DNA of 49,718 bases from Thermoplasmata archaeon (GCA_021828665.1 JAJZDH010000001.1:1-49718); one strand, 5' to 3'. Counted from the first letter of the stretch, positions 3,301-28,051 are shown. Notes: generated from the sequence alone by a model not told the origin. Numbers and translations: made by a program.

Positions 3301-3697
3301 AGGAGTAGCTCAGATTGAAGAGGAGCGTGTTCTGCGCCGTCGATCCGTCGGCGGGTCGGGCGAGCGACCGGCCGGCGAGGGACCCGGTCGGAAGATGGAC
3401 GGCCAGCGCCGAGAACGGCGTGGCTGCCGGGAGCGGGTGCGACGAGGGGGCGGCTCCAAAGTTGGCGGCGCCGGTCCGGGCTTCGGTCGCGAAGGGCACG
3501 ACGCTGCCCCTTGGCGCGGGGACCGCGCCGGGACCGAACGTGGAGCTCGAAAGGAGGGCTCCCGAGGGGGAGACCATCACCGCCACCACCAGAAGGACGA
3601 GGGACAGGAGGAGGAAACGACCCCAACGGCCCGAGAGGGGTCCGGAGAGTCTGTTCGCGAGTGGGGCTTCGTTGGTCAGCGTCTGCGATGAGTTCAT
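308..3697 (-). CDS. Membrane-anchored surface glycoprotein with BNR/Asp-box (sialidase-like) beta-propeller and C-terminal beta-sandwich (CarboxypepD_reg/PEGA-like) modules, 1129 aa
   Basis: Full ORF with an N-terminal hydrophobic signal/anchor (FLLLSLVLLVVAVMV). Five Asp-box motifs: SPNGGAHW, TTDGGVTW, STDNGSTW, SSNGGATW, STDGGAKW. Repeated GWINGTITP...ING beta-sandwich modules, then a Pro/Thr stalk and the TM helix IYLYGAIAVILILVAAIAIVML followed by RRGGGG and a Ser/Thr tail. Dozens of N-x-S/T sequons. Its ATG overlaps the upstream stop (tcat at 3694-3697 = ATGA). Confidence 0.85.
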   Translation of the reverse strand: MNSSQTLTNEAPLANRLSGPLSGRWGRFLLLSLVLLVVAVMVSPSGALLSSSTFGPGAVPAPRGSVVPFATEARTGAANFGAAPSSHPLPAATPFSALAVHLPTGSLAGRSLARPADGSTAQNTLLFNLSYSSTTTLIGKSNSSTETAIYSWNSIANGSVLTGWDSGFLPSASFFHSGLVEFVRTVGGTVTFATPPANATWSQTGASDYGSIWGAGNALFNPTFAAPGAEPLSLASNSTGNLLMAGLFTQACGVLPPTAISACNNTANITAPQGVAVARSPNGGAHWVQTADISQWNPFVYVVVPAPTNQANCTGGTAVAGYLGGNTTYGTPSIAMNPVNGDATVAWTEEKINYGGKFFWSASSGTCQLYVSPPATSFNTYTSTTTDGGVTWSAPVLHGNNTLFPTLSVGPAPSYDLYLMGLNGSVAATAAGFTTSLATSTDNGSTWSVMKNLIGPSVFLVKSLPDDSINYQVTPIYSLAVNTVPGSSHEGTLYLVWGDNRSFSAIGEPSVAYSSSSNGGATWSSPVYLTANLTGITSYADPKITVDANGYLWVTFYEASSTSGQFTEQAVVSTDGGAKWSPIFQVSDQTSLTGASGFANFGPNTGLVGSSNGAYATWSDCRDVTCANLNEQIFSANLHLVNVSSNVAGINVSVSSPATTSVVSAPGSVVVLNGSAVRVQAPQFASDNSTYVYEFSGWSGLTTSLQDPAIFTYGGQRASLTANYIAVPAAFIVGFVGPNVPSLSVHIGSTAAALLAHNGTTDAYNETVPAGPSYVVTISAGPDYQTYTTTVPTSQFEVVRVSAVLPRTTGWINGTITPAAANVTINGTTPGIISPGIFSLVVPWGTYEVQGSLTGYAPFFDNVSVNPRQTTSVAVTLVGGYIHISVVPTTAFVQVDGVPQTVSAGSFTTAELPGGTHVVTATAPGYSLFKWDVVVVPEKTTPLTIKLTNEGWINGTITPVTGHVQINQNYITVNLVTGLFNVTEPAGKGFYNVTGSAGGYESLSFATVAVSPGNVTYVPILLTQSPPPTNCTQTNTCPPTPKGPTSTGLNPIYLYGAIAVILILVAAIAIVMLSRRGGGGSRGTSSTSPTTSSSSTSTYDGSNPGELPKMQSDGSMNSSGSEGGGSPPA

Positions 3698-6600
3698 ACG
3701 TGTTCCTCAGGATTCGGAGTCTCCTCGGTGGGAGCCGAGATGCCTAGGCGCGGCTCCTCTTGAAGGTTTGCAGGGCCGGTCGACGGCTCGTCCATCGACG
3801 CCATCGATGCGCCGGGGGACGCGCTGGCGGGCGGCTCGCCGGGCGACGATCCGCGTCGTCGCCGGGCGAAAAGGACCGCCGCGACCAGGGCGGCGAGGCC
3901 GAGCAAGAGAACGCCCACCGCCAGGGTCGGGAAGGCGAAGTTCGTGAACGGGGGAGCGGTGCTGACGCTCAGGGTCGTGTTGGAATAGGCCAGCCGGCCG
4001 TACGGATCCTTGACCACCAGACGGACCTCAAACACGCCCGGGTGGGTGTAGTCGTGCGACGTGAAATTGGCCGGCGTCACCGCCGAGCTTCCGTCTCCGA
4101 AGTTCCAAGTGTAGGTGTACGTGTACGGTGGCACCGGGGTCGCCACGTTGGCCTGGAAGGGCACCTGCGAGTTCGTATACGATCCGGAGGGCGCCTGCAG
4201 GGTGACGACGGGGGGCACCGGCCCGAAGAGGAATTCGACCCAGCCGCTTCCCGTCAAATTGACCTCGGTGGCTCCGCCGCCCACCACGACGCCCGCGCTC
4301 GAATTCCAACCGGTCAGGTAGTCGCCCGCGCACCCCGTGGGATCCACCGCGTAATTTCCCTGGATCAGTTCGACCGACGAGTTGTTGAAGTACTCGGCTC
4401 CCTGGAAGAGGACACCACCGCACGCGGCGGGGGTGACGAGGAAGGTCAGCTGGTACTTGAGGGGGGAGAACAGCGCGGTCAGGATTCCGCTCCCTTCGAG
4501 GGTCAGCGTTCCGGGCCCGAGGAGGGCATCGGTGGTATTCTGCCAGCCGGAGAATCCATACCCGTTGCAGGCGGTGGCCCGCAACGGCACCGGCGCATTC
4601 TCCGGGATGGTGGCGGTCGCTCCATTGGTATAGTTCGCACCGTTGAGGGAGATCGTTCCGCAACGGCTCGGAAGCGTGTACAGGTAGGCGACCGCGAGCG
4701 GATGGAAGATCGCCGTGATGGAACCTGGACCGCTCACGAAGGCCGTGTTGCTTCCCGTGATCTGGATCCCGAGACCGATGGTCGACCAGCCCACGAAGCC
4801 CTCTCCCGCGCACGGAATGGCCCCCAGCGACCAGCTCGTATCCGGCGCCACGTAGGTGGACTGGGTGTCGGCATACGGGACACCCCCGAAGAGGATCTCG
4901 CCGCAGTGAGCCGGGTTGGTCACGAATCCCACCCAGGTCTTCGGAGTGCCCTTGCCGAACGTTGCAATGAGGAAGCCGCTTCCCTGGATGGCCACCCGGT
5001 TGCCGGTGACCTGGATGCCGCCCGAGCCGCTGAGACCCGTCGGATAGAACCCGGCGCAGGAGACCGGATAGGCGGTCGCGTTCGAGATCCCGGTCGCATT
5101 GAGGACGGTGTCGTTCCCGTACGTACCGTTGTAGGCCCCCCCGATCCACCGGATCCCTCCGCAGAATCCCGGAACGGTGATCACCGTGACCAATTTCAGG
5201 GGATAGTTGATCTCGGTCACGGTTCCGGTCTGCTGCACCGTGATCGCACCGGCCGATATGGAGATCCCGGGGGTAACCTCGAACGTCCGGAAACCGTAGT
5301 CCACGCAGGGAAGCTGCTCGATCGGGTACGGGGTTCCCGGTGCGACCGAGACGTTCGAATTGTTGACGTAGCCCGCCCCCCGGAACAAGATCCCGCCGCC
5401 GGGGCAGGACGCCGGTTGCACCTGGAAATCGAGCGTGATCGCCTGGCTGCTCGGGAGGTAGTTCGCGGTGATGGTCCCATTGCCCTGGAGGTACAGGACC
5501 GATCCCAGGATCGCGATCGTCGAGCTATTGGAGACGGTCCACCCCGAGAAGCTCGAAAGCGCGCAGGCCTGCTCGTCGAGAGTGTAGTTCTCATCGTCGA
5601 GGAGGGGAACCGAGGTGGCGAACGAATAGGAGGTCCCGTTGAGTACGATGGTCCCGCATCCGGACGGAGGGTTCGCGATGGCGAGGGAGAGGGTGTCCGT
5701 CGGGCGGATGTAGCGCCAGAACCCCTCCAGCGAGCCATTCGCGGTGATGGTGATCTCCCCCCGCGCCCCGGAAGGAACGGTGATGCCGGCCGACGCCGTC
5801 CAATGGCCGAAGACCCACGGGTAGCAGAGTTGGGCGGAGAGAGGGTAGGTGCCGGCCTCGATCGCGGCCGTCTGCCCGTTCGTATAGCGGGTCCCGTTCA
5901 GGACGATCGCCCCGCAGCTTCCGGCATTGATGGTCACCGAGACCGAGAAGGTCGGGATGGTTTCCCGCTGGACGAACATCGTCTTGAGGCCGGGCGCCGG
6001 AAGGCCGATCACTTCGCCTGCGCTATCGGTGGCCCACACCCGGTAACTGATCTTCCCATCCCCGCCGGTCGCCGGAATCGAGCCGCGGTAATACCCGTTC
6101 GAGAGGGTTCCGTTGGTCCGGTTCATGGTCGCGTTCCCGCCGCTCCCGTCCGGCAAGGTGTACGCCACCGAGACCTTCGAGATGTTTCCCAACACCTGCC
6201 CCAGGACGGTCACATTCAGTCCGGTGGAGGGAGCAACGAATCCACCGCGGGAACTGTTGGTGAGGGAAGTGAGGAAAAGCGGCACGAAGGCGGTCGGATA
6301 CCCGGTGGTCTGGTACTGGTTTCTCCCTCCGAAATTCTGGGTGGCCCAGGGTTTCTGGGTGGGGAAATTGAGCTGGCTTCCGTTGAAGGTGAACTCGGGA
6401 TAGTAGCCGGTGGTGGGGCCGAGGGGGCAAAGGATCCCGGAGATGGGGCTCGAAGCGCAGGCCCCGGTCAGCGACATCGGGGAGAACTCGGCAAACTGGC
6501 CCGAATAGGCCGTGCCGTTGAAGTATGTGGGAGGGTCCAGAACGACCGGGTCGGTGCTGTTGAGCGTCGATTCGGTATAGGAATAGCACGAATACGGCGC

Positions 6601-7578
6601 CGAGTAGTCGCAAAGATCCGCGCCGAAACTGACCCCCATCGGCTCGGAACTCCAATTAAGCGCGCAGTACAGGGAGCACGCCGCGCGGAACGCCGGTCGC
6701 AAGTTCCCGGCCCCCGTCGTGGTGTTGTTGAGGATCACGGAATCATGGAGGGATTGATACGAATCGTTGACATAGATGCGGAGGGGGGAGGTTCCGCTGG
6801 CGTTCCCGACGAACGTGACGTTGAGCTGGTGGCCGCCCTCGACACCGTAGGCCAGGAGCTGGCCCGATCCGCCTCCCAGGAGGTTCTCCATGCAGGCGAA
6901 GCTCGAGCTCACGCTGTTGTTCCAGGTGAATTCGTACGCCGCCGTCGATGGGCAACCGCCGCTGAGCCGGGCCGACCACACCGAAACCACCACGTCGTAG
7001 CTCGCCGACGAGGTGTTGCCGAGGAAGGAAACCTCGGCATAGGATTGGTTGTAGATCGAGCGGGCGTCTCCCGAGACGACCATGCCGAGGTCAAACCCGT
7101 CGAAGATGGATTGGATGCCACCGGAGACGTTGTCCGGTGGCAGGATGAGGGGGAACTCCACCCGGGCCGCCGAGCCCGGAACCGACGAATCGAAGCTCGC
7201 ATGGACCTCATCGTGGAAGGCGTACGAAAGCGGCGGTTGCGGATCGGCGAGGGCACAGGTCAGATTCACGGCGTTCGGGTAGGGGGGCGCGAGGGTGTAG
7301 TCCGAGCCTTGCACCCATTGGTACTCCTCGGTCGTCGTCGGGCACGTAAAGGAGGGGCGGACGAGCATCGAGGGCGAAGCCCCGCCGTATCGTCCCGAAG
7401 GCGCCACCGGACTCGGATGCAAGGAGGCGAGGGGGGGAGCGGCAGCCGACCCGACCCCGGCCACCCCCGGAACGTACGAACTGACGAGGAAGAGGACCAC
7501 GAGAGCGACGGCGAAAGCCCCGCTCCACCGAAGCCGGGACCCAGGCCCCGCCCGTCCCGAGGCCCGAACCTCAGTCAT
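3694..7578 (-). CDS. Membrane-anchored surface glycoprotein, 1294 aa: Cys-rich N-terminal region, seven tandem ~83-aa Cys-pair repeats, one PKD domain, C-terminal TM anchor
   Basis: I chose the internal ATG at 7578 (MTEVRASG...). It follows aaaGGAGGgaaggcggcc and overlaps the stop of the upstream small gene (ATGA at 7575-7578). Signal/anchor is FAVALVVLFLVSSYVPGVAG. The PKD signature is YTYTWNFGDGSS...HDYTHPGVFEVRLVVKDPYG. The TM is FAFPTLAVGVLLLGLAALVAAVLFA followed by RRRRG. The track ORF extends to 7752, but that extension is Arg/Gly/Pro-rich. Confidence 0.85.
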   Translation of the reverse strand: MTEVRASGRAGPGSRLRWSGAFAVALVVLFLVSSYVPGVAGVGSAAAPPLASLHPSPVAPSGRYGGASPSMLVRPSFTCPTTTEEYQWVQGSDYTLAPPYPNAVNLTCALADPQPPLSYAFHDEVHASFDSSVPGSAARVEFPLILPPDNVSGGIQSIFDGFDLGMVVSGDARSIYNQSYAEVSFLGNTSSASYDVVVSVWSARLSGGCPSTAAYEFTWNNSVSSSFACMENLLGGGSGQLLAYGVEGGHQLNVTFVGNASGTSPLRIYVNDSYQSLHDSVILNNTTTGAGNLRPAFRAACSLYCALNWSSEPMGVSFGADLCDYSAPYSCYSYTESTLNSTDPVVLDPPTYFNGTAYSGQFAEFSPMSLTGACASSPISGILCPLGPTTGYYPEFTFNGSQLNFPTQKPWATQNFGGRNQYQTTGYPTAFVPLFLTSLTNSSRGGFVAPSTGLNVTVLGQVLGNISKVSVAYTLPDGSGGNATMNRTNGTLSNGYYRGSIPATGGDGKISYRVWATDSAGEVIGLPAPGLKTMFVQRETIPTFSVSVTINAGSCGAIVLNGTRYTNGQTAAIEAGTYPLSAQLCYPWVFGHWTASAGITVPSGARGEITITANGSLEGFWRYIRPTDTLSLAIANPPSGCGTIVLNGTSYSFATSVPLLDDENYTLDEQACALSSFSGWTVSNSSTIAILGSVLYLQGNGTITANYLPSSQAITLDFQVQPASCPGGGILFRGAGYVNNSNVSVAPGTPYPIEQLPCVDYGFRTFEVTPGISISAGAITVQQTGTVTEINYPLKLVTVITVPGFCGGIRWIGGAYNGTYGNDTVLNATGISNATAYPVSCAGFYPTGLSGSGGIQVTGNRVAIQGSGFLIATFGKGTPKTWVGFVTNPAHCGEILFGGVPYADTQSTYVAPDTSWSLGAIPCAGEGFVGWSTIGLGIQITGSNTAFVSGPGSITAIFHPLAVAYLYTLPSRCGTISLNGANYTNGATATIPENAPVPLRATACNGYGFSGWQNTTDALLGPGTLTLEGSGILTALFSPLKYQLTFLVTPAACGGVLFQGAEYFNNSSVELIQGNYAVDPTGCAGDYLTGWNSSAGVVVGGGATEVNLTGSGWVEFLFGPVPPVVTLQAPSGSYTNSQVPFQANVATPVPPYTYTYTWNFGDGSSAVTPANFTSHDYTHPGVFEVRLVVKDPYGRLAYSNTTLSVSTAPPFTNFAFPTLAVGVLLLGLAALVAAVLFARRRRGSSPGEPPASASPGASMASMDEPSTGPANLQEEPRLGISAPTEETPNPEEHV
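4222..5955 (-). repeat. Seven tandem protein-level repeats (~80-85 aa each) inside CDS 3694..7578, resembling divergent InlB-B-repeat-type modules
   Basis: Recurrent pattern C-G-x-I-x-(L/F)-(N/G)-G-x-x-Y ... C-x-x-(Y/F)-x-F-x-G-W. Examples: SCGAIVLNGTRYTNG..LCYPWVFGHW, GCGTIVLNGTSYSF..ACALSSFSGW, HCGEILFGGVPYAD..PCAGEGFVGW, RCGTISLNGANYTNG..ACNGYGFSGW, ACGGVLFQGAEYFNN..GCAGDYLTGW. Each unit keeps two Cys about 30-35 residues apart. Confidence 0.7.
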
Positions 7579-8006
7579 GGCCGCCTTCCCTCCTTTGGAT
7601 CGAAGATCTCGAAGCTGGGTATATCCTTGAGGTGGCGGATGCGGCGGCCCTTGCCGCCCGTGCCGCCCGAGCTCTGGTACCACTCCTCGTAGGAATACAT
7701 TCCAAGCACTCCCCCCGAAATGGTGAGCGCGAACGGGACCAGCTCGGCCCACGTCGTGTGCGGGAGAGCCGAGGGGACGGCTCCCGAGATCCCGAGCCCG
7801 AGATAGACTCCGGCGGCGAAGAGCAGGATGCCGAGCAAGAGGAGCGCGAGCCAGGTGGAGCTATCGATGGGATCGCTCTCCGGTGCGGCCTTCCCGACGG
7901 GGGCCGCACCGACCGCTGGACGTGGCTCCGGAAAGTCCGAAGGGGCGTCGCGGCCGCCGTTCGAACCGGCTCCCGCCTCCGGCCGAGGTCCACCGCCCGC
8001 GTCCAT
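7575..8006 (-). CDS. Small membrane protein (143 aa, two predicted TM helices), translationally coupled to the downstream giant surface protein
   Basis: ATG at 8006. Disordered Gly/Pro N-terminus, then hydrophobic stretches WLALLLLGILLFAAGVYLGLGISGAV and WAELVPFALTISGGVLGMY, then a basic tail. Its TGA overlaps the ATG of the next gene (ATGA 7575-7578). The competing 179-aa ORF in another frame (7571..8110) is Arg-rich and unconvincing. Confidence 0.6.
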   Translation of the reverse strand: MDAGGGPRPEAGAGSNGGRDAPSDFPEPRPAVGAAPVGKAAPESDPIDSSTWLALLLLGILLFAAGVYLGLGISGAVPSALPHTTWAELVPFALTISGGVLGMYSYEEWYQSSGGTGGKGRRIRHLKDIPSFEIFDPKEGRRP

Positions 8007-8093: not shown

Positions 8094-11000
8094 TTAGCCA
8101 CGCGTCCCATACGTCCGGATGAACTCCTCCGCCCACGCGAGCGTTTCCGGAGTGATGCTCGACTTCGTCTTCCCGACGGCGGCGAGGAGGTTGCTCATGC
8201 GGATGCCGACCACCTCGCTCTTCGGTTCCTTGGCGCCGACCTTGACCGCCCCCTTGCCGAACAGCCCGCCGACTCCCCCGGCGGGGGAGGCGGAAACCTC
8301 CGTCACGAGCTGCTCCCGCAGGGCGATCAGCTTCGCCTCATCGACACAATTGGCGATGTCGGCCCCGCTGAAGCCGTCCGAGCGCCGGGAAAGGTCCCCG
8401 AAGTCGACGCTCCCGTCCACGGGCACGCCCTTCAGATGGATCCGGAAGATATCCTGGCGGGCCGCGACATCGGGCGGCGGCACGTAGAAGATCTTGTCGA
8501 ACCGACCCGGTCGCAGCAGCGCCGGATCGAGCGTCTGGGGCCGGTTGGTGGTGGCGATGATGATGACCTTGTCCTTCGGCCGCAGCCCGTCCATTTCCGT
8601 CAGGAACTGGCTGACCGCCCGGGAGACTTCGGGGGTGCGCATCGATTCCTTCGACGCGAGGGCGTCAATCTCGTCGAAGAAGACGATGGACGGGGCATTC
8701 TCGCGCGCCCGGTAGAGCACATCCCGCACGGCCGCCTCGCTCTGCCCGGCGAGGGCGCTCACCAGCTCCGGACCGTTCACGATCTGCATCGGGACGTTGA
8801 GCTCGTTCGCCGCCGCCCGCATGATGTGGGTCTTCCCGCACCCCGGGGGACCGAAGAGGAGGATGCCCCGGCCGCTCTTGATCTTGTAGCTCTCCATGAG
8901 CTCGGGCCGGGTGAGCGGCAGTTCGACATACTCCCGGATCGCCTGCTTGATGTCGGTGAGCCCGCCGACATCGTCCCAGTGGACGACGATCTTGCGCTCC
9001 ATCCGCTGGGTCTGGTGCATCTTCCGCTCGTAGTCGAGCTTCATCGTCTCGTAGTCCGTGATCATCCGCAGCGAGATCGAGGGCTTGATCCGGGGCATGA
9101 CCTGGTTGAAGTCGTCCATGGTGATGACGCTGTCCGCCTTCGTCATCATCGACCTGCGGACGGCGATCGTGGCCGCCTCGCGCACCAGGTTGGCCAGATC
9201 GGCGCCGCTGAACCGCTCCGTCTTCTTCGCGATCTCGGAGAGATCGATGTCTCCCGCGACCGGTCGTCCGGAGAGGTGGACATGGATGATCTCCATGCGC
9301 TCGTTGAAGTCGGGGGGCGGCACGTAGATGATCTTGTCCAGCCGGCCAGGGCGCATCAGGGCCGGGTCGATCATGTCGGGCTTGTTGGTGGATCCGATGA
9401 CGATGACCCCCGCGGACTTGTCGATACCGTCCATCTCGCTCAGCAGGATGGAAAGGATGCGCGGCGTGACATCATCGGCGGTGTACATGTCCCGGCGCTT
9501 GGCCACCGCATCGATTTCATCCATGAACAGGATGCACGGGGAACGCTCCCGGGCCGTGCGCAGGAGATCGGCGACCCGGTTTTCGGACTCCCCGTACCAC
9601 TTGCTCATGAGGTCGGAGCACTTGATGGAGATCATCTCCACCCCGAGCTCGCTCGCGAGCGCCTTCATGAGCATCGTCTTCCCGCAGCCGGGGGGACCGA
9701 ACAGCAGAATCCCCTTCGGCGGCTCCAGCTTGAACCGGGTGGTCACGTCCTTGCGCATCAAGGGGATGATCATCGACTCCTTGATGTCCGCCTTGACATC
9801 GTGGAGCCCTCCGACCATCTCGAAGGTGGTCTTCTGCAGCCCCTTCATCTCGGCGACCCGGGAGCCGACGCTGGTGGCCCCGAGGCGGCTCGTGAAGTAG
9901 GACTCGAAGACATCCTTGAGGACCAGCCCTCCCGCGACGCACGTGATCATGGCCGGGATGAACAAGAGGGCGCCGATCATCCAGAGCGAGGTGTAGTTGA
10001 AGGCGACCATGCCCACCAGGGTGACCCCCGCGAGCACGGCCCCGGCGATCGCTCCCGACTGGAACAGGTTGCGCTCCGTCTGGCGCTCCCTTTCCTTGAA
10101 AGCGACGGTGACGATCCAGGCGGCGAATACCCACGCGCCGATCTGGGCCATGGGAATCGCGAGCTCCCCGAAGCCGCCGGAGCCCTGGACCAGCACCTGG
10201 AAGTTCGGGAACAGAAGGTTCGCGTAGGCCGAACCGATGCTGTTGAGCGTGAAGTACGGGATGGGAAGCGTCGGGAGCAGGGCCGCGGCGTGACCCGACA
10301 CCAGGGTGCGGCTTCCGTTCCCTCCGGGGCCCACCAGGTACCCAAAGATCGGCAGATTTCCGAGCGTGACGAAGAGGCTGATCAGGAGCCCGCCCGCCAC
10401 CGCCACCGCGAGGCCGAGATAGAGCGAGAAGATGAGGGCCATGAAGATCGGGACGGCGAACGACAGGCCCACGGGGGCGAGGAACAGCGTGAGCAGCGTT
10501 CCGAACGCGAACCGCCAATCGACGAGGCCCGCGTACAGGACCGGCAACACGGCGAAGAGGAAGACCAGCCCCAACGCCCCGCTCTGGTACGCCACTTCCG
10601 GAACCACGAGGAGCGTGAGGACCAGGAGGGCGAGCTGGGGGTATTTCCAGGCGATCGCCATCACCGCGCCCACGATCAGGATGACGTACGGCCAGGGATA
10701 GAACGGGAACATGAATCCCGCGAACGCCGCCGTGGCGCCGAGGAGCCCGACGACCAGGTTCCGGGGGTCCTTCGTCTGCTGGCGGACCCACTTCTCGAGC
10801 GGGGAAGCGAAGACGAACGCCCCGATCAGGCAGAGGATCCCGAGGATGATGAGGAAGAGGAACAAGCCGTCGTATTGCCAGTTGGGCACCGGCTGGATAT
10901 ACTGGCCACCGATGGCGACGGCGGAAGCCCCGGTGGGTCCGCCCTGCGAGATCGCCGCATGCGTCGCGTCCGCCGCGGCATCCAGCGTGAGATAGCTCAC

Positions 11001-11807
11001 CGAGCTGTAGACTCCCCCCGGTAGCTGGGTCTGGACGATGGTGAAGGTCATGAGCACCGAACTCCCCGCGGAGAGCCAGCCGAGCTGACCTTGGTAGGTG
11101 CCGAACAGATCGGTCGCGAGCGTCGATTGGGTGGTCGCCTGCAGCGACGGTTCGCCGGTGATGGAAGCGAAGGCGAGGGTCGTGATGCCGGAGCTGGAAT
11201 TGTACTGGACGGAAGAGACCTTGTCCTTGATGTAGACCGTGTCGCCCACCGACACGCCCTTCGTCAGGCGGACCACGTGGACCGCGGGATTCGCGTTCCA
11301 CATCTGGGCGCCCGAATCGGTCAGGAACTGGGAGGCCGTCTGCGTCCCGGTCGAATACGGCTGCCCGGCGATCTCGGAGTAGAAGGTGAAGCTGAGGGCG
11401 GCCCCCACGATGACCAGAAGAAGTCCCGCGATGGCGAGCGACACCCAGATGCGCCGACCGCTCTGGCCCTTGGCCGGAATCCCGACGCCGCTCCGTTTGG
11501 CGGGTGGGAGACGAACCTGAGCCACGGGGGCCCGAGCCGACGGGGTGGGTTTGATGGCGGTCCCGGGGCTCTTCGCCGAGGGCTGGATTCCCGTGGACGG
11601 CTTCGCCACGGTGCCGGAGGGGGCGGCCCGCGGAGCGGCACCGGGGGAGCCGGTCCCGGCCGGGGCGCTCGCCGGCCGGGCAGGGGCCGGAGCGGCGGGT
11701 CGGGCGGGCACCGGTGCCGGAGCCCCCGGTCCCGATACGGGTGTACCGGCCACAGGGCTGGGCGCGGCCGACGTGTTCTTCTTCTGGGGATTCGCTTCTC
11801 CGCTCAT
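8094..11807 (-). CDS. Cdc48/VCP-like double AAA+ ATPase fused to a large N-terminal polytopic membrane domain (1237 aa)
   Basis: ATG at 11807 is preceded by GGAGG 13 nt upstream. The C-terminal 577 aa (8097-9827) contain two complete AAA cassettes: Walker A GPPGCGKT twice, Walker B ILFMDEID and IVFFDEID, arginine-finger regions PALMRPGRLD and PALLRPGRFD. The N-terminal ~660 aa have a Pro/Ala-rich ~140-aa segment, a TM helix (IWVSLAIAGLLLVIVGAAL), a ~200-aa Ser/Thr-rich loop, and about ten more hydrophobic helices. Confidence 0.9.
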   Translation of the reverse strand: MSGEANPQKKNTSAAPSPVAGTPVSGPGAPAPVPARPAAPAPARPASAPAGTGSPGAAPRAAPSGTVAKPSTGIQPSAKSPGTAIKPTPSARAPVAQVRLPPAKRSGVGIPAKGQSGRRIWVSLAIAGLLLVIVGAALSFTFYSEIAGQPYSTGTQTASQFLTDSGAQMWNANPAVHVVRLTKGVSVGDTVYIKDKVSSVQYNSSSGITTLAFASITGEPSLQATTQSTLATDLFGTYQGQLGWLSAGSSVLMTFTIVQTQLPGGVYSSVSYLTLDAAADATHAAISQGGPTGASAVAIGGQYIQPVPNWQYDGLFLFLIILGILCLIGAFVFASPLEKWVRQQTKDPRNLVVGLLGATAAFAGFMFPFYPWPYVILIVGAVMAIAWKYPQLALLVLTLLVVPEVAYQSGALGLVFLFAVLPVLYAGLVDWRFAFGTLLTLFLAPVGLSFAVPIFMALIFSLYLGLAVAVAGGLLISLFVTLGNLPIFGYLVGPGGNGSRTLVSGHAAALLPTLPIPYFTLNSIGSAYANLLFPNFQVLVQGSGGFGELAIPMAQIGAWVFAAWIVTVAFKERERQTERNLFQSGAIAGAVLAGVTLVGMVAFNYTSLWMIGALLFIPAMITCVAGGLVLKDVFESYFTSRLGATSVGSRVAEMKGLQKTTFEMVGGLHDVKADIKESMIIPLMRKDVTTRFKLEPPKGILLFGPPGCGKTMLMKALASELGVEMISIKCSDLMSKWYGESENRVADLLRTARERSPCILFMDEIDAVAKRRDMYTADDVTPRILSILLSEMDGIDKSAGVIVIGSTNKPDMIDPALMRPGRLDKIIYVPPPDFNERMEIIHVHLSGRPVAGDIDLSEIAKKTERFSGADLANLVREAATIAVRRSMMTKADSVITMDDFNQVMPRIKPSISLRMITDYETMKLDYERKMHQTQRMERKIVVHWDDVGGLTDIKQAIREYVELPLTRPELMESYKIKSGRGILLFGPPGCGKTHIMRAAANELNVPMQIVNGPELVSALAGQSEAAVRDVLYRARENAPSIVFFDEIDALASKESMRTPEVSRAVSQFLTEMDGLRPKDKVIIIATTNRPQTLDPALLRPGRFDKIFYVPPPDVAARQDIFRIHLKGVPVDGSVDFGDLSRRSDGFSGADIANCVDEAKLIALREQLVTEVSASPAGGVGGLFGKGAVKVGAKEPKSEVVGIRMSNLLAAVGKTKSSITPETLAWAEEFIRTYGTRG

Positions 11808-11832
11808 CGCTCTTCGTTCTCCTCCGTTTCTT

Positions 11833-13656
11833 CTAAAGCGTAATTCGCCGTTGCTCTTCCTCGGCCTTCTTTCGGCGCTCTCGGAACCAGGGCCACACAA
11901 AGGCGAGGGCGATCACCGCCGCGCCGAGCCCCAGCACCGATCCGACCGGTACCGTGGGGATCGAGGAGACGGTCGTCTCGGAAACTGGGCCCGATGCCAC
12001 GTAGAACAGGACCGTGAACGGCGTGGAATTCGTGAGAATGACCGTGGTGGTGTAGCTCCGTCCGAACGCCGTGATTCCCAGCTGATACGCCCCGTACCCC
12101 AGCGCGAGGGTCTGGAGATCGGAGCCGTGGGGAATGACCGGGACGACAAACCCGAGCGGCGTCCCATCTCCCGTCTCGCTCCAGGAGGCGTTCGAAAGGG
12201 TGAAATTGAGGCCGGCCACGAGGCCGGTCCCGGCGATATCCAGCGCCTCCACATAGAAGACCTCGCGATCGGTGGGATAGGGGGTGGACGGGAAGCGGCC
12301 CGTGGAATAGGTGTAGTTTCGCGAGAAGACGGGGGTGCCGAAGATGTCCTTCGCACTCACAAAGAACGTGACCGAACTCTCCGGAGGCAACCCCGGGATG
12401 TTCGCGAACGACGAATTGGGGCTCGTCGGCGTCATCGGAAGGACTCCGGAGTGGGTGGCCTCTCCGTTCGCGAAGACGAAGTTCACCTGGGCCGATCCGA
12501 TCGTGATGTTCGGCTGCGGCTCGTGGATGGTGACATTCACGGCCGTCCCCACGCCCACGATTCCGTTCGCGGGCGGCAGGACATTGGGGTTGGTCGCGAG
12601 GATCAGATTCGAGAGCAGCCCCTGGTTCGGAAACTTCCAGCCACCATGGATGGACCAATTGAAGGTGTACTGCGGGCTGTAGAGGCGGTCGATGGCACCC
12701 CCTTCCCAGGGCAACCAGGCCGTTACGTTGAAACTCACGGTGGAATTGGGGTAGGGACCGATCGGTTGAAGGAGTTGGACCGTGGTGTGGTTCGCGGGCG
12801 CGAAGGCGGCCGTCCGGGTCGTGCTGGATCCCGACTGGTTCACCGAATAGGTGAGCTGGGCGGCGGGGATGGTGCCCACAAGTAGCCCTGGAGGGGCGAG
12901 AGCGTTGAGCGTGATCTGCAATCCCTGATCTGGATTCGGAGCGAAGCTCGGCGAGGCCAGGGCGGGAGGGTTCGTCGACAGTTGAATGCTGTTCGAGAAG
13001 TTCTCGGAACTCCACGGGCCCTGGACAAAGAACAGCCAGCTCGCGGTCAGCCCCGGCCCATCCGGATACGAGTACGGATTGGTAGAATAGATCACCGCGG
13101 GAGTCGCTCCGAGGCCGGTCAGCGTGAGGTTGAAGAGCACCGTATCTCCGGGCCAGAAGAAGCGGTAATCGTTGAAGAAGAAGGAGGCCTGGTTCGGGGA
13201 GCTGGAATTGACCAGCATCTGCTCCGTCCGGGGGTTCTGGGGAGAGTAGCTCGGAATGGGCGTCTGACGGTTCTGGACCGGCCATTCCGTCCCCCAGATC
13301 GTGACGTTGGCGTAGATGAGCGGTTTGTCCGTCGAGATGTTCATCCAAAACCCGTTGGCGTACTCGGGAACATCGTTGATCACCGGCTCGGTAGTGAATT
13401 GCGTCCCGAACGAAGGACTTCCGCCGGGAAGCGCGAACGTAACCTGCACGTCATGGGAGAAGTTCGAACTCCCCCAGAGCGGGGCCGGAGAGGCCGCGAT
13501 GGAGGCTCCACGGGGGACCCCCGCGGAGAAGGCGGGACGAGGCGGTTCCCGAGCGGATCCACCGACGGAGATTCCGCCAAGGAGCGCCGTCCCGCTGAGG
13601 ACCATGACGAGAGCCACCGCGACCGCGAGAACCGGACGTTCCGACAGGATCCTCAT
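11833..13656 (-). CDS. Membrane-anchored surface glycoprotein, 607 aa, paralogous in architecture to the upstream gene
   Basis: Internal ATG at 13656 (MRILSERPVLAVAVALVMVLSGTALLGG) overlaps the upstream stop (ATGA 13653-13656). Asn/Ser/Thr-rich with many N-x-S/T sequons. C-terminal TM VPVGSVLGLGAAVIALAFVWPWF, then the tail RERRKKAEEEQRRITL. The region upstream of 13656 in the track ORF is His/Arg/Pro-rich junk. Confidence 0.8.
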   Translation of the reverse strand: MRILSERPVLAVAVALVMVLSGTALLGGISVGGSAREPPRPAFSAGVPRGASIAASPAPLWGSSNFSHDVQVTFALPGGSPSFGTQFTTEPVINDVPEYANGFWMNISTDKPLIYANVTIWGTEWPVQNRQTPIPSYSPQNPRTEQMLVNSSSPNQASFFFNDYRFFWPGDTVLFNLTLTGLGATPAVIYSTNPYSYPDGPGLTASWLFFVQGPWSSENFSNSIQLSTNPPALASPSFAPNPDQGLQITLNALAPPGLLVGTIPAAQLTYSVNQSGSSTTRTAAFAPANHTTVQLLQPIGPYPNSTVSFNVTAWLPWEGGAIDRLYSPQYTFNWSIHGGWKFPNQGLLSNLILATNPNVLPPANGIVGVGTAVNVTIHEPQPNITIGSAQVNFVFANGEATHSGVLPMTPTSPNSSFANIPGLPPESSVTFFVSAKDIFGTPVFSRNYTYSTGRFPSTPYPTDREVFYVEALDIAGTGLVAGLNFTLSNASWSETGDGTPLGFVVPVIPHGSDLQTLALGYGAYQLGITAFGRSYTTTVILTNSTPFTVLFYVASGPVSETTVSSIPTVPVGSVLGLGAAVIALAFVWPWFRERRKKAEEEQRRITL

Positions 13657-15731
13657 AGGGTCACCCGCTTCTCCTGCTCCTTCCGACGTTCCGAAATGGC
13701 CCGCCACCACCAGACAATGGGGATCATCGCGCCCAAGGCGACGAGCAATCCCAGGGTCGGCCCGATCAGCACCGGAACGACCAACGGCGCGGGCGAGAAG
13801 GTTGCGGCCGGAGCCGTGGAATTGAGCCAAAAGAACAATTGATTCCCCGATTGCACAATCGTGTAATCGTTGGTCTGGGCCAGTGTCCCTTGGGCGACCA
13901 TCGGATTGGTCAGCTTCAGGAGAATCGAGATGGGAGGGCTCGCCTGGGAGGTTCCCGACGGCACGAAGGCTGCATCGGTGACGGTGATGTTGTAGGTAAT
14001 ATTGGCGGGGAGCAGCAGAGGGACTTCCGGGGACGCCGAGGAGTTGGGATAGGCGATCCCGTACAGGGTGCGGGCCCGAACATTGATGAATCCGCCGGAA
14101 GCCACGATGCTCACCGACGCCCCGCTCACCCAGGAATGGGTCCCGTTGTCGTAGACATAGATCCACACGAAGGCCAGATTCGATGCTTGCGCGGGGACCA
14201 CCTGCTGGAAGGTCTGGATACTGTAGCCGTACAGCGAGGACGTCTCCGGGGTGGACGCATAATCCCATACAGTTATGGTGAAATTGATGTACGAACCAAT
14301 GGGGATGGCCGGCAATACACCCTCCAGGTGCGTTGAATTGACTCGTTGCAAATAGAATTGACCGCCCACCTCTTCCTTGAGCGCCGGGAGGCTAAAGGAG
14401 TACTGAATGATGCCACTCCGGAGAGCGGTCCCCAGGTTCCGGCTGGCCACCAGCACCGAGACCGCGGTTCCGGGCGGAAGAACGACCGGATTGGTCACAG
14501 GGGGTTTCGGCATCGGACCGATCGTAGGGGGAATCCCGTTGCTGGGGGTCACCGTCACGGCGATGTCGTCCTGGAAGACCCCGGAAACGAAGGTGCCGTT
14601 CGAATGAACATAATATCCCTGCGTGGGGAGCGTGATCTGGTCCGGGGTGTACTTGGTCGTATCCACCGCGTCGTTGGCCACGATCGAGTAGGAAATGATG
14701 GTCCCCGGAATCTGCGCGTAGCTCGACGGAATGATCGCATACGTGGACGCGAGCCCATGAACTCCGACGCCCGGGGCCAGGAAGGGAATGGTCACATTTG
14801 GCAATGTGACCCCGTCCGGCAACGTCGCGTACAGATTCAACAGAGCACTTCCGATCGTGGCCGAATTGTTATCGACGTTGTCGGCGGCCGTGGTTCGAAT
14901 CGTGATGTTCGTCGAGTCATTCCAATTGGGAGTAATGGGGTTCTGGAAGACCTGGAGATCGAGCGTGGAGGCGTTCGGCCCCCCATACTGAGCGGCCTGC
15001 GGGTAGGGCGAAAACGCCCACGCGGTGGCGATGCGGTAGTGGAAGACGGGGCTCGACAGATGGGTGTAGACACCGGAGGGCTGCCGGGTCACGATATAGA
15101 TCGACCAGGAGACATACTCCCCCGGGAAGAAATTCGGAACCCCGGAGCTGTTCCCGTCAATGACGAGCTGATACCAATACTTGTACGTCCGGTTCGTCAC
15201 CCCCGACACCGAGCTCCAATAGTTGGAATTCGTGTTGGAATGCCAGATCGTCCCGTCGTAGGCATTCATGTACGGATCGCCGTTCCAAAGAACTCCGGAG
15301 ACGTTGATCCGAAGCGGCGTCTTGTTGCTGTTCCCGGTGGGAGAGGGGGGATTGATCGTCGTGAGGGGGTATTCGCTCTTGACATAGAATGAGATCGTGG
15401 CGTTGGGTAGGGGCAGCGTATTGGATGTCAGGTTGCCAGGGGTAGGGACCACGTTGTAGGATCCATTCTTGGCGGAAACGCAGATGGTGGTGTTGATCTT
15501 GAAGCAGGTGTAGTTGTCGGTGGGGTCGAGGGGACGCAGGGAAGTTTGGGGGCGAGCGTGGGACGAGGCCGCCGGCGTCGGGGAAGGAACGGCCGACGGC
15601 GCCCCCAACGAGCCGACCGCTCCCGGAAGGAGACCGGACGCTATCAGCGACAGAAGGACCAGAAGGATGGGAACGGCTCTCACCAAGTTCGAAACGTGCG
15701 GCCGGCTCACTGGATCAAAACTTTCCTTCAT
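13653..15731 (-). CDS. Membrane-anchored surface glycoprotein, ~692 aa
   Basis: First ATG at 15731 (MKESFDPVSRPHVSNLVRAVPILLVLLSLIASGLLPGAVG = signal/anchor). The track ORF starts at a TTG at 15809, which is a possible alternative. Asn-rich sequon-dense ectodomain. C-terminal TM LIGPTLGLLVALGAMIPIVWWW, then the tail RAISERRKEQEKRVTL. Confidence 0.8.
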   Translation of the reverse strand: MKESFDPVSRPHVSNLVRAVPILLVLLSLIASGLLPGAVGSLGAPSAVPSPTPAASSHARPQTSLRPLDPTDNYTCFKINTTICVSAKNGSYNVVPTPGNLTSNTLPLPNATISFYVKSEYPLTTINPPSPTGNSNKTPLRINVSGVLWNGDPYMNAYDGTIWHSNTNSNYWSSVSGVTNRTYKYWYQLVIDGNSSGVPNFFPGEYVSWSIYIVTRQPSGVYTHLSSPVFHYRIATAWAFSPYPQAAQYGGPNASTLDLQVFQNPITPNWNDSTNITIRTTAADNVDNNSATIGSALLNLYATLPDGVTLPNVTIPFLAPGVGVHGLASTYAIIPSSYAQIPGTIISYSIVANDAVDTTKYTPDQITLPTQGYYVHSNGTFVSGVFQDDIAVTVTPSNGIPPTIGPMPKPPVTNPVVLPPGTAVSVLVASRNLGTALRSGIIQYSFSLPALKEEVGGQFYLQRVNSTHLEGVLPAIPIGSYINFTITVWDYASTPETSSLYGYSIQTFQQVVPAQASNLAFVWIYVYDNGTHSWVSGASVSIVASGGFINVRARTLYGIAYPNSSASPEVPLLLPANITYNITVTDAAFVPSGTSQASPPISILLKLTNPMVAQGTLAQTNDYTIVQSGNQLFFWLNSTAPAATFSPAPLVVPVLIGPTLGLLVALGAMIPIVWWWRAISERRKEQEKRVTL

Positions 15732-16374: not shown

Positions 16375-19300
16375 TCAGCGCTCCGGGGAATCCCGGGAGG
16401 GGGCGGACGGCCGGCGTAGCAGGACCACCGTGGCGATCGCGGCGCCGACGACGACCAGGAGCGCGATCAGCAGGTATCCGGTATCTCCGGTGAAACCGAG
16501 GAACCCGGGAACCTCCGTCGTGCCGGCCGGCTGGAAGGCGATCGACACGGTCACCGACTGGTTCCGGACGGAGAAGGAGCCGGTACGGGAAGCGGGGAGG
16601 AACCCGGGGACCGGGGAGATCTCGAACGAATACTGACCCGCCGTCTCCTCGAAGCGGACGGTCGTCCCGTTCGAAGTCGACGTGGAGGCGTTGGGTCCAC
16701 CCAGTACAGTGACCGACCAGGACTGACCGCTCGGAAGACCCACCTCGGCGAACGTCACCTCGAAATCGGCCGGGACGAAGGAGATGGTCTCCTCCTCTCC
16801 GGCGCCGGCCACGGAGAACTGGCCGTCGCGGGGGGACGCGTTGAACTCCGAGGGCCCCTCCACGACGAAGGAGTACGATCCGTTCGGTTCGGGAACGGTG
16901 AACTGGGATTCCTCGGCCGTGTGGTTGGACCCGTTCACCCGCACGGTCCAGTTCGTTCCGGACGGGAGTCCCGTCTCGCGGAAGGTGATCGGATACGCGA
17001 AGGGGGAGAAGAGGAGAGCCTTCGTGACGGGCGCATTCGCCACGGAGAAGGTCCCGGCCCGCGGCTCGGACGTGTACCCGGAGGGAGGGGAGATCGAAAA
17101 GGAGTAATTGCCGTCGGCGAGCCCGAAGACGATGGAGGGACCCGGGCTGCTCTGCCGGGTGCCGTTGACGGAGACCGACCAGTTCGCGCCGGCCGGCAAC
17201 CCCGCCTCCGAGAACGTGACCGCGTACGTCCGGGGCGGGGTCGTCGCCGGACCCCGGTAGGCGTAGAGGACGCGGTACATCGGGTTGTTGAGGGCGAGCG
17301 TGGCGGAGAAATCGAGATAGAAGCTCGAGCTCGCCGGATACTGCCCTTCGAAGCAGCTGTTGCCGCAGACCGTCCCGTCGAGCGACCGGTTCGTCCGCCG
17401 CACCGAGCCGTTCCAGGGATCGAACAGGAACTGGGTCCCGTTCGTCCAGGCGGTAGGCCCGTAGGATTGACCGAGCACGTAGTCGGAGGTGCTCACGTAC
17501 CGCTGGATCTCGAGCAGTTGACCGGAGGGGCCGGCGGTCCCGTTGTAGTCGGTGGTGCGCCGTTCGCCCTGAGTCGAGAGGTCCCCGTTCGGGCCGAACG
17601 GGAGGACATAGCTATAGGCCATGCTTCCGGCCCAGTACCCGGCCGAGAAGGCGATGGCACCGATGGACGCGTTGTAGGCGAGGCCGTCGACCCAGTTGAA
17701 CACGATCCCGTGGTCCACCGCGACCGTCGCCACCGACGTGAAATGGATCTCTCCCGACGCATCCCAGAGCGCGTCGAGCTGCTCGACGAGGTCGCCCGAG
17801 TCGCCGTGGGCTTCGACATTGATGAGCGCCTCGCGCTGCGGAAGCCAGTAGGCGTTGTTCGCCTCGAAGCAGGTGGCGGAGGGCCCGAATCCGAAACCGA
17901 GGGTGCCGGCGAGCCAGCTCCGGTGGTCGGCGAGATTGAACGCCTCGATGCTGCAGTTGGAGGAGAGGACCAGGACGGTATTGTTGCCCACGTACTCCGG
18001 TTGCTGGTTCGTGGGATCGACCGCCGCGGAGGTGTTCCAGAGGAGCACCTGCCCGTCGGTGACGTTGACCAGCTCGAGCGTCACATCGGCGCCGGCGGGG
18101 CTCGTGGTGCCGAAGAAGAGGGCGCGGTCCCCCGCGAGGAAGAACTCGTTGTCGAGCATTCCGTTGAGGGGGGAGCCGTACCCGAACCGCTGGTAGAGCG
18201 GGATCACCGGTGCGATCGAGCGGAAGGACCCGTTGGGGATCGCGACGTACCCGAATTGGGAGGAGTTGTCCACATAGTAGACTCCGAACGGAACCCCGGA
18301 ACTGCTCGCGAGCGTGGGCACCTGGGTCGAGACGGTGCCGGTCCGGAAGTAGCCCGTGAGCGGATCGAATCCGGGCAGGTCGTAGGTCCGCTCCTGGTAG
18401 CCGAGGAGCGGGGGGGTGATCGCGTGCACGGGCGCCGACAGTCCGGAGCTCCCGTTCTCGTTCCACGCCGCGACCGCGAAGCAGTAGTCCGCGCTGGAGC
18501 CGAGGCCGCCGACCCGGTACGCCGACACGACCCCCGCCGAGATCGAGCGGACCGGTCCGCGGAGGGGGCAGCTCCCCGGGGAATACCAGACGGTGAGGTT
18601 CGTCACGGTGCCGGTCGGATTCGTCCAGGCCAGATCCACGGTCGATCGGGTGACGTTTCCCACGACGAGCCCCGTCGGCGCGGAAGGGGGCGTCGTGGGG
18701 GACGATCCGGAAACCGTGAACGATAGCGCCGTCCAGTACGTGGAGTACGGTAGGATCCACCACGGGTCGGGCACGCGGAAGGAACCGTCCACGTAGGCCC
18801 AGGAGGCGGCTCCGTTCATCCCGTCCGTCGCGCTCCCGGGAGGATTGGCCGGTCCCCCGGTGTAGTTCCAGGTTCCGTAGACGGTCCCGAAGCCGGTCGG
18901 TCGGGTGCTGGCGAAGACACTGATGAGGGTGTCGCCGGCGGCCGTTCCGCTCAGCGGATCGTAGGGCGAATCGCTCGAACCCTGGCTTCCCGGACCGACG
19001 AGACGGGGGATTGGTCCGATCGCGGCCGGGAACAACCACCACTCCACCATCAGGAACCCCGACGACGAGATGCTGACATTGACCCAGCCCGGCGCGCTGG
19101 CCCGGGTCGCGTTCGCCCACATCGCGAACATCGAGGGGGAACTGGTGACCCCCGGGGTGCCCGGGGTCATGGTCCGGTTGCGGAACCAAAAGATGGCGCC
19201 CGGGTCAAAGGAGGAAGAGACCACGCGGGGCCCGGAACTCTGGTAGTCGAACACCACGGCGACGAACGTGTCGCCCACGGAGAAGTTCATGCCCGTACAG

Positions 19301-19563: not shown

Positions 19564-19855
19564 GGTCACCTCACCGCAGACGGCCGGCTCCTATCCCCGG
19601 CAGGGCATGTCGGGGGAGCGAACCCGGTTCGCTCGGGGACCCGGGAAGCTTCGTTCGCTGTGGATGCGGGCGGCAGGGTCCCGAACCTCGGTCCGAAGGA
19701 ACGACGAAAGGAGGGCCCCAGGGAATTCGCCGAGACGAATCCCCGCCCCGACCGCGGCCGACTTCCGAATCCTGCCGCCCGGGAGGCCCGGCCCCTGTCC
19801 GGGGCGCCCCCGGGCGCCCCGGTGCCGCCGGCGCCGCCGGGAGTCGACGACATGC

Positions 19856-28026: not shown

Positions 28027-28051
28027 CGTGGGTCCCACGACCGCGATTTCA

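Follow-up and report, generated by a model that had tools for sequence, protein, structure and literature searches.

A recurrent fusion of Cdc48-like AAA cassettes to a polytopic membrane core, encoded among surface-protein genes of Thermoplasmatota

The window analysed here is a 49,718-nucleotide (nt) contig of a Thermoplasmata archaeon (GCA_021828665.1 JAJZDH010000001.1:1-49718), and the gene in question, at 8094-11807 on its minus strand, encodes a 1237-residue protein in which a membrane domain precedes two AAA cassettes. A reading made from the sequence alone had described the product as a Cdc48-like double AAA ATPase fused to a polytopic membrane domain, and had inferred a membrane-embedded unfoldase or translocase, which could serve the extraction, insertion or quality control of the giant anchored glycoproteins encoded around it. 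The fusion is real and recurs in 47 proteins. It is an undescribed architecture, a variation on the theme of the membrane-anchored AAA unfoldase: a full-text literature search found no description of the core-AAA fusion, and the ESCRT/Cdc48 survey PMC11188069 does not mention one. The functional idea is partly supported and can be sharpened, in that the adjacent proteins appear to be subunits. From the analysis as a whole, we put at about even the chance that the 1237-residue protein serves a heteromeric surface complex as its motor and membrane platform, in the form of a hexameric ring that would pull on the tails or anchors of the proteins encoded with it.

The open reading frame (ORF) is intact, unbroken over its full length with a G+C content at third codon positions (GC3) of 0.90, and its translation ends in ..FIRTYGTRG. 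The upstream gene ends with the TAG at 11835-11833, which leaves a gap of 25 nt to the ATG at 11807; the spacing and the gene's own Shine-Dalgarno element had both been recognised correctly from the sequence. The gene and protein are laid out as follows.
8094..11807, minus strand: ATPase gene, membrane core plus double AAA; stop codon at 8094-8096; full-length copies on other contigs.
11821..11825, minus strand: GGAGG Shine-Dalgarno-like element, 13 nt 5' of the ATG at 11807.
11463..11807, minus strand: N-terminal Pro/Ala-rich basic segment, amino acids (aa) 1-115, predicted cytoplasmic and disordered.
11379..11456, minus strand: transmembrane helix 1 (TM1), aa 118-143, hydropathy peak 2.62.
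10884..11378, minus strand: small ectodomain, aa 144-308 (165 aa), with sequon N203, specific to the window's clade.
10803..10883, minus strand: TM2, aa 309-335, from hydropathy and AlphaFold helices.
9888..10790, minus strand: membrane core, aa 340-640, which defines the family; no Pfam match, no PDB fold match.
10692-10706, 10578-10592, 10509-10520 and 10356-10370, minus strand: core motifs PFYPW, AYQSG, DWRF and VTLGN.
9828..9887, minus strand: juxtamembrane linker ..YFTSRLG..VGxRVAEM.., aa 641-660, conserved in alignment A2, N-terminal to the first cassette.
8988..9827, minus strand: first AAA cassette (D1), with Walker A 9672-9698, SKWYGESE 9582-9605, Walker B 9510-9533 and RPGRLD 9336-9353.
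8097..8987, minus strand: second AAA cassette (D2), with Walker A 8826-8852, ALAGQSE 8736-8756, Walker B 8664-8687 and RPGRFD 8496-8513.
D1 is delimited here as aa 661-940, the Pfam AAA domain beginning at aa 700. Residues 1-140 are rich in Ala (0.21) and Pro (0.18) and contain 15 Lys+Arg to 1 Asp+Glu, and aa 1-117 contain 13 to 1. The N-terminal order first proposed, a Pro/Ala segment, one TM helix and a loop, thus stands with shorter parts, about 115 aa instead of about 140 for the segment and about 165 instead of about 200 for the loop. The loop's supposed Ser/Thr richness applies to aa 141-165 (T 0.20, S 0.16) and does not extend to aa 166-360 (about 0.09 each). The whole TM1-ectodomain-TM2 part is missing in most relatives of the window ATPase.

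What defines the family is the membrane core. Kyte-Doolittle hydropathy and AlphaFold agree on eight full and two short helices after TM2, between about aa 349 and 633, and the predicted total for the protein is 12. The core model, computed with the 23-sequence alignment A2, reached a predicted local distance difference test score (pLDDT) of 83.4 and a predicted TM-score of 0.84, while a model from the 8-sequence alignment A1 (pLDDT 45) was discarded. A Pfam scan of the 23 cores gave no credible match, and Foldseek searches of the PDB with the core model gave none either (best E 0.66, with a TM-score of 0.12; top query-normalised TM-score 0.25), so that the N-terminal domain on which the sequence-only reading had dwelt has no match to a characterised family. 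The core is thus far a candidate for a new fold of membrane protein. Pro, Gly and aromatic residues, none of them of catalytic appearance, make up most of its conserved positions, in the motifs PFYPW(W), YQ..(E)FG, DW[KR]FG, G..VP, VT.GN and P...W; the only invariant residues are P, F, Q and G, with Y, W, P and G close to invariance, and the D and K/R of DW[KR]FG are retained by most members. In the alignment and the AlphaFold model the motifs group at both membrane faces. An archaeosortase-like or intramembrane-protease core was considered and rejected, because Cys, His and Ser are nowhere invariant and pairs of Asp or Glu are absent. By prediction the N-terminus lies inside together with the loops KWVRQQTKDP and KERERQT, while the 165-aa domain, a 53-aa loop and FNYTS lie outside. 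This topology is consistent with the positive-inside rule and with the placement of N203, N497 and N604, the three sequons of the transmembrane part, all in predicted outside loops; a fourth, N11, is in the predicted cytoplasmic N-terminus. The last core helix ends inside, about 30 residues ahead of D1 and joined to it by the conserved linker, and the ring would therefore sit near the membrane with its N-terminal face turned towards it.

The cassettes themselves are classical. Pfam recognises PF00004 twice in the window ATPase, each time followed by AAA_lid_3 (PF17862, twice), with PF00004 as the best family (2.9e-87) and AAA_5 at only 1.3e-13. Two complete cassettes had been reported from the sequence, and the motif coordinates agree: both have the Walker A motif GPPGCGKT, the Walker B motifs are ILFMDEID and IVFFDEID, the Arg-finger regions are RPGRLD (D1) and RPGRFD (D2), and the pore loop is aromatic in D1 (SKWYGESE) and devoid of an aromatic residue in D2 (ALAGQSE). 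D1 and D2 are 46% identical to each other. The description of the cassettes as Cdc48-like is borne out in a particular sense, since for each taken alone the best match is the D2 half of VAT and of the CDC48 model (positions 450-731 of TIGR01243), with PAN and FtsH next in similarity; the best PDB matches are Thermoplasma VAT and p97. The whole protein scores 540 bits against TIGR01243 (CDC48/VAT), under the cut-off of 802.65, and 465 against TIGR01241 (FtsH), under the cut-off of 600 and with only the AAA part covered; it also falls beneath the PAN family cut-off. CDC48_N and CDC48_2 are not among the best 25 of its 43 Pfam matches, all within aa 683-1098, and neither is Peptidase_M41. Judged by the missing N domain and the sub-threshold score, the window ATPase is not a member of the CDC48/VAT family. 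Its C-terminus is not of the HbYX type, as had been noted, the Tyr of ..FIRTYGTRG standing at -5; relatives end in ..YGTRQ, ..YGTRT or ..YGQRG.

Across the family the two cassettes differ in their fate. The Walker A, Walker B and S[KR]WYGESE pore loop of D1 are kept in 47/47 relatives, whereas D2 is intact solely in the window's clade, the other forms having no Walker B, an aberrant P-loop or an acidic tail in place of the cassette; on these alignments the invariant unit, and presumably the conserved engine, is therefore the membrane core plus D1. The double cassette emphasised at first is thus sound for this protein, both cassettes being intact here, and does not characterise its relatives. 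Two of them (L018 4732-8892 and L022 4729-8862, P0020) combine a degenerate D2 with an extra C-terminal segment ..LEDVCREFGLKPYGKKIVLQERLHDYL.., in which a putative SAP-type motif was noticed by eye. A role in anti-phage defence was also considered and set aside, PADLOC matching the generic AAA part alone and the partner proteins matching nothing.

How far the family extends was examined in several ways. A word-index search with the membrane part returned 8 proteins only, the labelled ones all from Thermoplasmata metagenome-assembled genomes (MAGs) and several running on into AAA domains, and its repetition with the A2 alignment gave 4 fragments only. A HMMER profile of the membrane part, including TM1-ectodomain-TM2, found 40 matches among 1.84 billion cluster representatives, the labelled ones Thermoplasmatota and most having either the core or the N-terminal region of the window's clade. 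The long matches (880-1400 aa) have in common only the core of about 300-320 aa, some 50 residues ahead of the D1 Walker A, and the spacing from core to Walker A is identical in all relatives. The window ATPase itself, which has the motifs PFYPW, YQ, DW[KR]F and VT.GN, scores 2e-103 against the core profile. Scanning GTDB species genomes with a sequence pattern yielded another 40 loci, a lower bound skewed to fused forms, as the pattern (PFYPWW[MVL][IV], from alignment A3) misses the window-type PFYPWP. Of these loci 37 are labelled Thermoplasmata, Thermoplasmatota, Thermoplasmatales, Methanomassiliicoccales or Methanobacteriota (the NCBI phylum label) and three merely 'uncultured archaeon'. 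Every locus found is a MAG or metagenome contig, and source annotations read 'AAA family ATPase', 'ATP-binding protein', 'SpoVK/Ycf46/Vps4 family AAA+-type ATPase' or 'hypothetical protein'. Within the reach of these searches, the family appears confined to Thermoplasmatota.

The same surveys bear on whether the protein exists as such. A chimeric join or a two-gene read-through near 9828 might be suspected from the metagenomic origin of the window and from the fragmentation of some relatives (P0001, P0005, P0006, P0008). However, 47 proteins from Thermoplasmatota MAGs have the same core-to-D1 junction, the cluster at 90% identity holds copies of 1237-1238 aa on contigs of 17.8-91 kb, including the window's own of 49.7 kb, the frame is unbroken with high GC3 over the whole gene, and the fragmented relatives lie on contigs with evident frameshifts in several genes. 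Because the junction recurs, the artefact is refuted and its residual probability is negligible. At the closely related locus L001 (ERZ25039587 contig_61128) frameshifts interrupt three genes, those for the ATPase and subunit A and, in its tail, that for subunit B, reflecting either an indel-rich assembly or decay of the whole operon there.

The evidence that the ATPase has fixed partners comes from the two genes directly upstream.
11833..13653, minus strand: subunit B, with signal anchor, ectodomain, TM anchor and cytoplasmic tail ..RERRKKAEEEQRRITL.
13653..15731, minus strand: subunit A, a paralogue of B, with ectodomain, TM anchor and tail ..SERRKEQEKRVTL.
The start of B overlaps the stop of A by 1 nt. 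The two have a cytoplasmic tail in common (..ERRKEQEKRVTL and ..ERRKKAEEEQRRITL), as had been noticed in the sequence, ending in ..KRVTL and ..RRITL in A and B, and orthologues hold the same position in related loci. In most family members an immunoglobulin-like (Ig-like) ectodomain of about 380 aa, consisting of two novel beta-rich repeats and a CarboxypepD_reg-like domain, is fused to the N-terminus of the ATPase, and it is related to the C-terminal ectodomains of A and B (hhalign probability 98-99.9%, pairwise E-values of 1e-14 to 1e-35 from shallow alignments), while the other surface proteins of the window reach at most 4%. A and B match the profile of this ectodomain at 3e-26 and 4e-34, and the AB profile at 6e-201 and 4e-234. 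The window ATPase's own small ectodomain (aa 144-308) was also tried as an A/B-type ectodomain and ruled out, with an hhalign probability below 1%. Where the ectodomain is split from the ATPase, one or two ectodomain subunits are encoded immediately upstream, some with start/stop codon overlap; in L006, L008, L030 and L048 it is a single short protein, the gene for which overlaps the ATPase gene by 4 nt in L006 and L008. In the paired arrangement, 24 of the 25 tails examined (window plus 11 loci) end in RRKK..E.E..[KR]R[IV]T[LV]-COOH right after the TM anchor, despite ectodomains that are only 24-40% identical. A fusion/fission relationship of this kind is a classic genomic sign of a physical complex. 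With their ectodomain built into the ATPase of most family members, A and B are, on this comparative evidence, stoichiometric partner subunits rather than mere neighbours. The earlier suggestion that the neighbours are substrates thus keeps the linkage on which it was built, whereas A and B would not be simple candidate substrates.

The linkage to large anchored surface proteins, first noted in the window, recurs across the family. Our own profiles recover, at about 25 loci, the order VWA-type subunit, ectodomain-core-AAA (fused or split) and small membrane protein, the last of about 100-120 aa with three helices in the related loci. The VWA-type subunit consists of a signal anchor, an Ig-like part, the VWA domain, a Pro-rich stalk, a hydrophobic AGFxGLGI segment and a basic tail, KQKVAVG. 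or LGYT.NER. The metal-ion-dependent adhesion site (MIDAS) motif DxSxS is present in 23/27 of these VWA domains, and with signal anchors and C-terminal anchors they would be extracellular. At about 20 fused-type loci a protein of more than 1000 aa is encoded upstream of the VWA gene, with Big_7/Big_13 Ig repeats, an anchor at the C-terminal end and, on the cytoplasmic side, a long charged tail; the window and L001/L002 likewise have linked giant repeat surface proteins, the type of repeat differing between loci. The cytoplasmic C-termini of VWA-type and giant subunits are conserved too. Taken together, gene order and profile matches delineate a conserved operon for a giant repeat surface protein, a VWA-type subunit, the ectodomain/core/AAA unit and a small membrane protein. 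In the window the remaining genes of the operon are the following.
22018..28173, minus strand: giant surface protein, 2051 aa, nine CarboxypepD_reg stretches, C-terminal TM anchor.
19856..22021, minus strand: C1 subunit, 721 aa, with ectodomain, poly-Pro stalk, a short hydrophobic stretch AGFLGAGF and tail ..RPISMAVAA..GIGRFE.
16375..19569, minus strand: fn3/DUF5979 anchored surface protein, 1064 aa, between C1 and A.
7575..8006, minus strand: small two-TM protein, 143 aa, directly downstream of the ATPase gene, GC3 0.79.
3694..7578, minus strand: PKD/Flg_new_2 anchored surface protein, true start at ATG 7578.
308..3697, minus strand: BNR/PEGA anchored surface protein, 1129 aa, last gene of the same-strand run.
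The order on this one strand is thus 2051-aa protein, C1, fn3, A, B, ATPase, 143-aa protein, PKD and BNR/PEGA. The run looks translationally coupled: the 2051-aa and C1 genes overlap by 4 nt, and the 143-aa gene overlaps the start of the PKD gene as ATGA. The 1352-aa ORF listed for the latter from 7752 is over-extended, the GC3 of its first 180 nt being 0.51. C1 is the positional counterpart of the VWA subunit, with partial VWA similarity only (96% over 36 columns). The 143-aa protein is likewise a counterpart by position of the small membrane-protein family ('Dsmall'), homology with which is unsupported (1%).

This genomic setting speaks to two alternatives in which the ATPase would not be part of a dedicated machine. 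It could be a replacement for FtsH in general membrane-protein quality control, extracting damaged or unassembled membrane proteins and passing them to a cytosolic protease. The cassettes do belong to the classical AAA group of Cdc48, PAN and FtsH, the ring is membrane-anchored with an aromatic D1 pore loop, and to our knowledge archaea generally lack FtsH. However, a housekeeping role would be expected to be widespread, and the rarity of the family (40 representatives in 1.84 billion, the labelled ones all Thermoplasmatota MAGs), together with its constant occurrence in a dedicated operon with specific surface subunits, to one of which it is often fused, makes such a role improbable; in addition, the protein has neither a protease domain nor an HbYX tail. 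It could also be that the ATPase is an assembly or maturation chaperone, acting once in biogenesis to fold, insert or oligomerise the surface proteins and standing outside the mature machine. The operon does tie the ATPase to giant surface proteins, and AAA+/VWA pairs are often maturation chaperones, as with MoxR-VWA and the predicted archaeal arCOG01314 system (PMC5898192). The permanent ectodomain-ATPase fusion in most members points instead to a stable complex, the ATPase is of the classical AAA type and not MoxR, and the 2051-aa protein, A, B, C1 and the related VWA subunits have ordinary N-terminal signal anchors, so that their export is probably by Sec (the giant proteins of fused-type loci, cut at their N-termini, are outside this observation). 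A chaperone seems to us unlikely, if less so than general quality control.

For the motor and membrane-platform interpretation a working mechanism can be outlined. Classical AAA proteins form hexameric rings through which substrate passes from the N-terminal to the C-terminal face, with initiation on free cytosolic tails, and it is from these proteins that the hexamer, its orientation and the engagement of tails are inferred here. The ring would be pressed against the membrane from the cytoplasmic side, D1 turning its N-terminal face towards it, with the core as an intramembrane platform. The D1 pore would grip the surface proteins encoded with the ATPase by their cytoplasmic tails or membrane anchors, in the window by the ..KRVTL and ..RRITL ends of A and B, and ATP hydrolysis would draw them towards the cytosol. 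D2, intact here and with a non-aromatic pore loop, might add hydrolysis or ring stability, as do the second rings of NSF and p97. Two outcomes can be envisaged: force transmitted across the membrane may remodel or reset an extracellular adhesin assembly, or the co-encoded surface proteins may be extracted and turned over by a dedicated device. We slightly favour the former, because the ectodomain is built into the ATPase in most members and would then be no disposable substrate. Of the functions originally proposed, insertion is disfavoured, given the direction in which classical AAA rings generally move their substrates.

Several points weigh against this interpretation. The hexamer, its orientation and the engagement of tails are carried over from classical AAA proteins, and the conserved tails could be static docking peptides instead of pore substrates. 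In the single-ectodomain split forms (L006, L008, L030, L048) the tails are not conserved. C1 and the 143-aa protein are tied to the VWA and Dsmall families merely by position, and the hhalign values linking A and B to the fused ectodomain come from the shallow pairwise alignments mentioned above. The core is nearly devoid of invariant polar residues, the Q of YQ alone being invariant, and this scarcity says little about a channel or groove. The turnover branch is further weakened by the lack of any protease or proteasome-docking motif.

A third alternative is a retrotranslocon or importer, in which six cores would form a channel, the VWA/Ig-like subunits would capture polypeptides outside, and D1 would thread them inward. 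This would fit the predicted membrane-ward orientation of the D1 N-face, from which classical rings move substrate to the C-face, the constancy of partners with extracellular ligand-binding domains (VWA, with MIDAS in 23/27) and the clustering of core motifs at the two membrane faces. On the other hand, there is no sign of a pore, the core has no conserved polar lining residues, and giant anchored proteins with long cytoplasmic tails suit an adhesion complex better than a feeding device; nor do we know of any precedent for such an importer, which we consider highly improbable. A bolder extension of the motor and membrane-platform interpretation, to our minds rather doubtful, is a mechanical device in which a membrane-built Cdc48-type ring pulls on the tails of adhesins and VWA/Ig-like receptors and so alters their conformation outside, adhesion or position, with an AAA-driven retrotranslocon as a variant. 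Such a device, driven by ATP, would be for archaea what inside-out coupling is for integrins, or what the coupling of motor and leg is for gliding mycoplasmas; wall-less forms occur among the Thermoplasmata.

Of the known classical AAA unfoldases that work at membranes, some have one or two anchoring helices (FtsH, Msp1) and others are soluble and depend on a separate membrane protein for recruitment (Cdc48 with Hrd1); the window protein departs from each of them. With Cdc48, p97 and VAT it shares two tandem classical cassettes with lids, one ring aromatic and the other not, and its D2 pore loop ALAGQSE may be set beside the KLAGESE of p97 D1. It differs in having a membrane domain in place of the double-psi-barrel/beta-clam N domain, in that both its cassettes are D2-like and the aromatic loop is in the first ring, and in the absence of HbYX. 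FtsH, Yme1 and AFG3L2 likewise have a classical AAA ring held at the membrane, through a short linker, by N-terminal TM helices flanking an extracytoplasmic domain; they differ in their M41 protease, their 2 TM helices instead of 12, and their lack of a second cassette and of dedicated partners. The extraction branch has its template in Msp1/ATAD1 and Hrd1-Cdc48, with a classical AAA and a KWYGES-type pore loop acting at the membrane, and in both Msp1 and Cdc48-dependent endoplasmic-reticulum-associated degradation (ERAD) extraction starts at the cytosolic tails of anchored proteins. Msp1, however, has one TM helix and one cassette compared with 12 helices and two cassettes, and in ERAD the ATPase is soluble with Hrd1 and Derlin as separate proteins, whereas the membrane domain of the window protein is part of the ATPase chain and has no relation to them in sequence or fold. 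In NSF, a type II AAA protein, one ring has been conserved as the engine while the other has degenerated to a structural role, an asymmetry that resembles the present one, and NSF acts on TM-anchored proteins via cytoplasmic helical segments. The likeness is claimed for the AAA cassettes only, NSF being soluble, with SNAP adaptors and a Cdc48-type N domain.

Among archaeal AAA proteins, MBA of Sulfolobus is also anchored in the membrane. The MBA protein of Serek-Heuberger et al. (2009) reportedly consists of a TM helix, an extracellular domain, a second TM helix and a single AAA cassette, with no polytopic core. This TM-ecto-TM arrangement resembles aa 118-335 of the window protein, from which MBA would otherwise differ, and the profile search of the membrane part, in the same 1.84 billion representatives, gave no link to MBA, its labelled matches being Thermoplasmatota. 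Such membrane-bound AAA proteins (the MBA group) are on record, as cited in PMC3493965, so a statement that all characterised archaeal AAA proteins are soluble would be too strong. At the level of the whole system, the nearest description is that of the arCOG01314 operon by Makarova, Galperin and Koonin in 2015 (PMC5898192), which encodes an AAA+ ATPase, a secreted Ig-like plus vWA protein and Ig-like membrane or S-layer proteins. Its ATPase, however, is of the MoxR/GvpN class and soluble, while the window's is classical AAA and fused to the core, and in the family also to an ectodomain; apart from VWA, the two systems were not found to have any family in common. MoxR-VWA pairs differ similarly, with a COG0714 (AAA_3/AAA_5) ATPase and a cytoplasmic VWA protein as opposed to PF00004 and extracellular VWA partners.

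Other features of the window and the related loci deserve mention. The G+C content is 0.60-0.70 across the surface-protein operon (1-28000) and 0.71-0.76 from about 28 kb on (28000-49718). A horizontally acquired island is a possible source of the step, but the low-GC part encodes Ser/Thr/Asn-rich surface proteins throughout, and amino-acid composition may account for it. A Kelch-repeat protein of 767 aa (42126-44429, minus strand) has a C-terminal module in common with C1 (19856-22021), comprising a poly-Pro stalk, AGF.R and [RK]..SMAVAA, with 41% identity over 82 aa and a C1 profile match at 3e-29. The VWA subunits of distant loci end in a similar motif, K.KVAVG, and proteins with an ending of the SMAVAA/K.KVAVG type may all use it to dock onto the ATPase complex. 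The giant Ig-protein tails of L028, L031, L032, L034-L039 and L047 end in acidic-Trp motifs (..NWEDEGSK, ..GWIDE..DDFYD), as do the single-cassette ATPases of the same loci (..DWEGS, ..DDDWD), which suggests a shared cytoplasmic binding partner for the two. In L015 (122-3289) the cytoplasmic tail of the giant Ig protein contains a helix-hairpin-helix/RNA_pol_A_CTD-like domain (Pfam, aa 954-1019), unexpected in the tail of a surface protein; the tails in L019, L020 and L046 resemble it by eye, and the group ends in ..SVMEADLPSDKE. Giant FG-GAP proteins (integrin-alpha-type propellers) of 2644 and 2875 aa adjoin the operon in the distant loci L005 (7842-15776) and L008 (18275-18673), and in L008 two TPR/DUF835 proteins also lie beside it. 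The window further encodes Nre, an archaeal-type AdoMet synthetase and PTH2, genes that mark it as archaeal. A 901-aa ORF with Kelch and PKD repeats and a C-terminal PTH2 domain (39392-42097, minus strand) is probably two genes merged by the mechanical listing of ORFs, or an annotation trap.

The protein described here is a putative motor fused to a large membrane domain without a Pfam or PDB relative and, in most members of the family, to an extracellular domain as well. It offers a compact, self-contained system with fixed surface partners in which to ask how an AAA ring couples to events in or across the membrane, and the conserved C-terminal tails of these partners provide testable predictions of binding. 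More broadly, the family points to an uncharacterised surface machine in Thermoplasmatota lineages that have no cultured representative in hand and whose envelope is little known.

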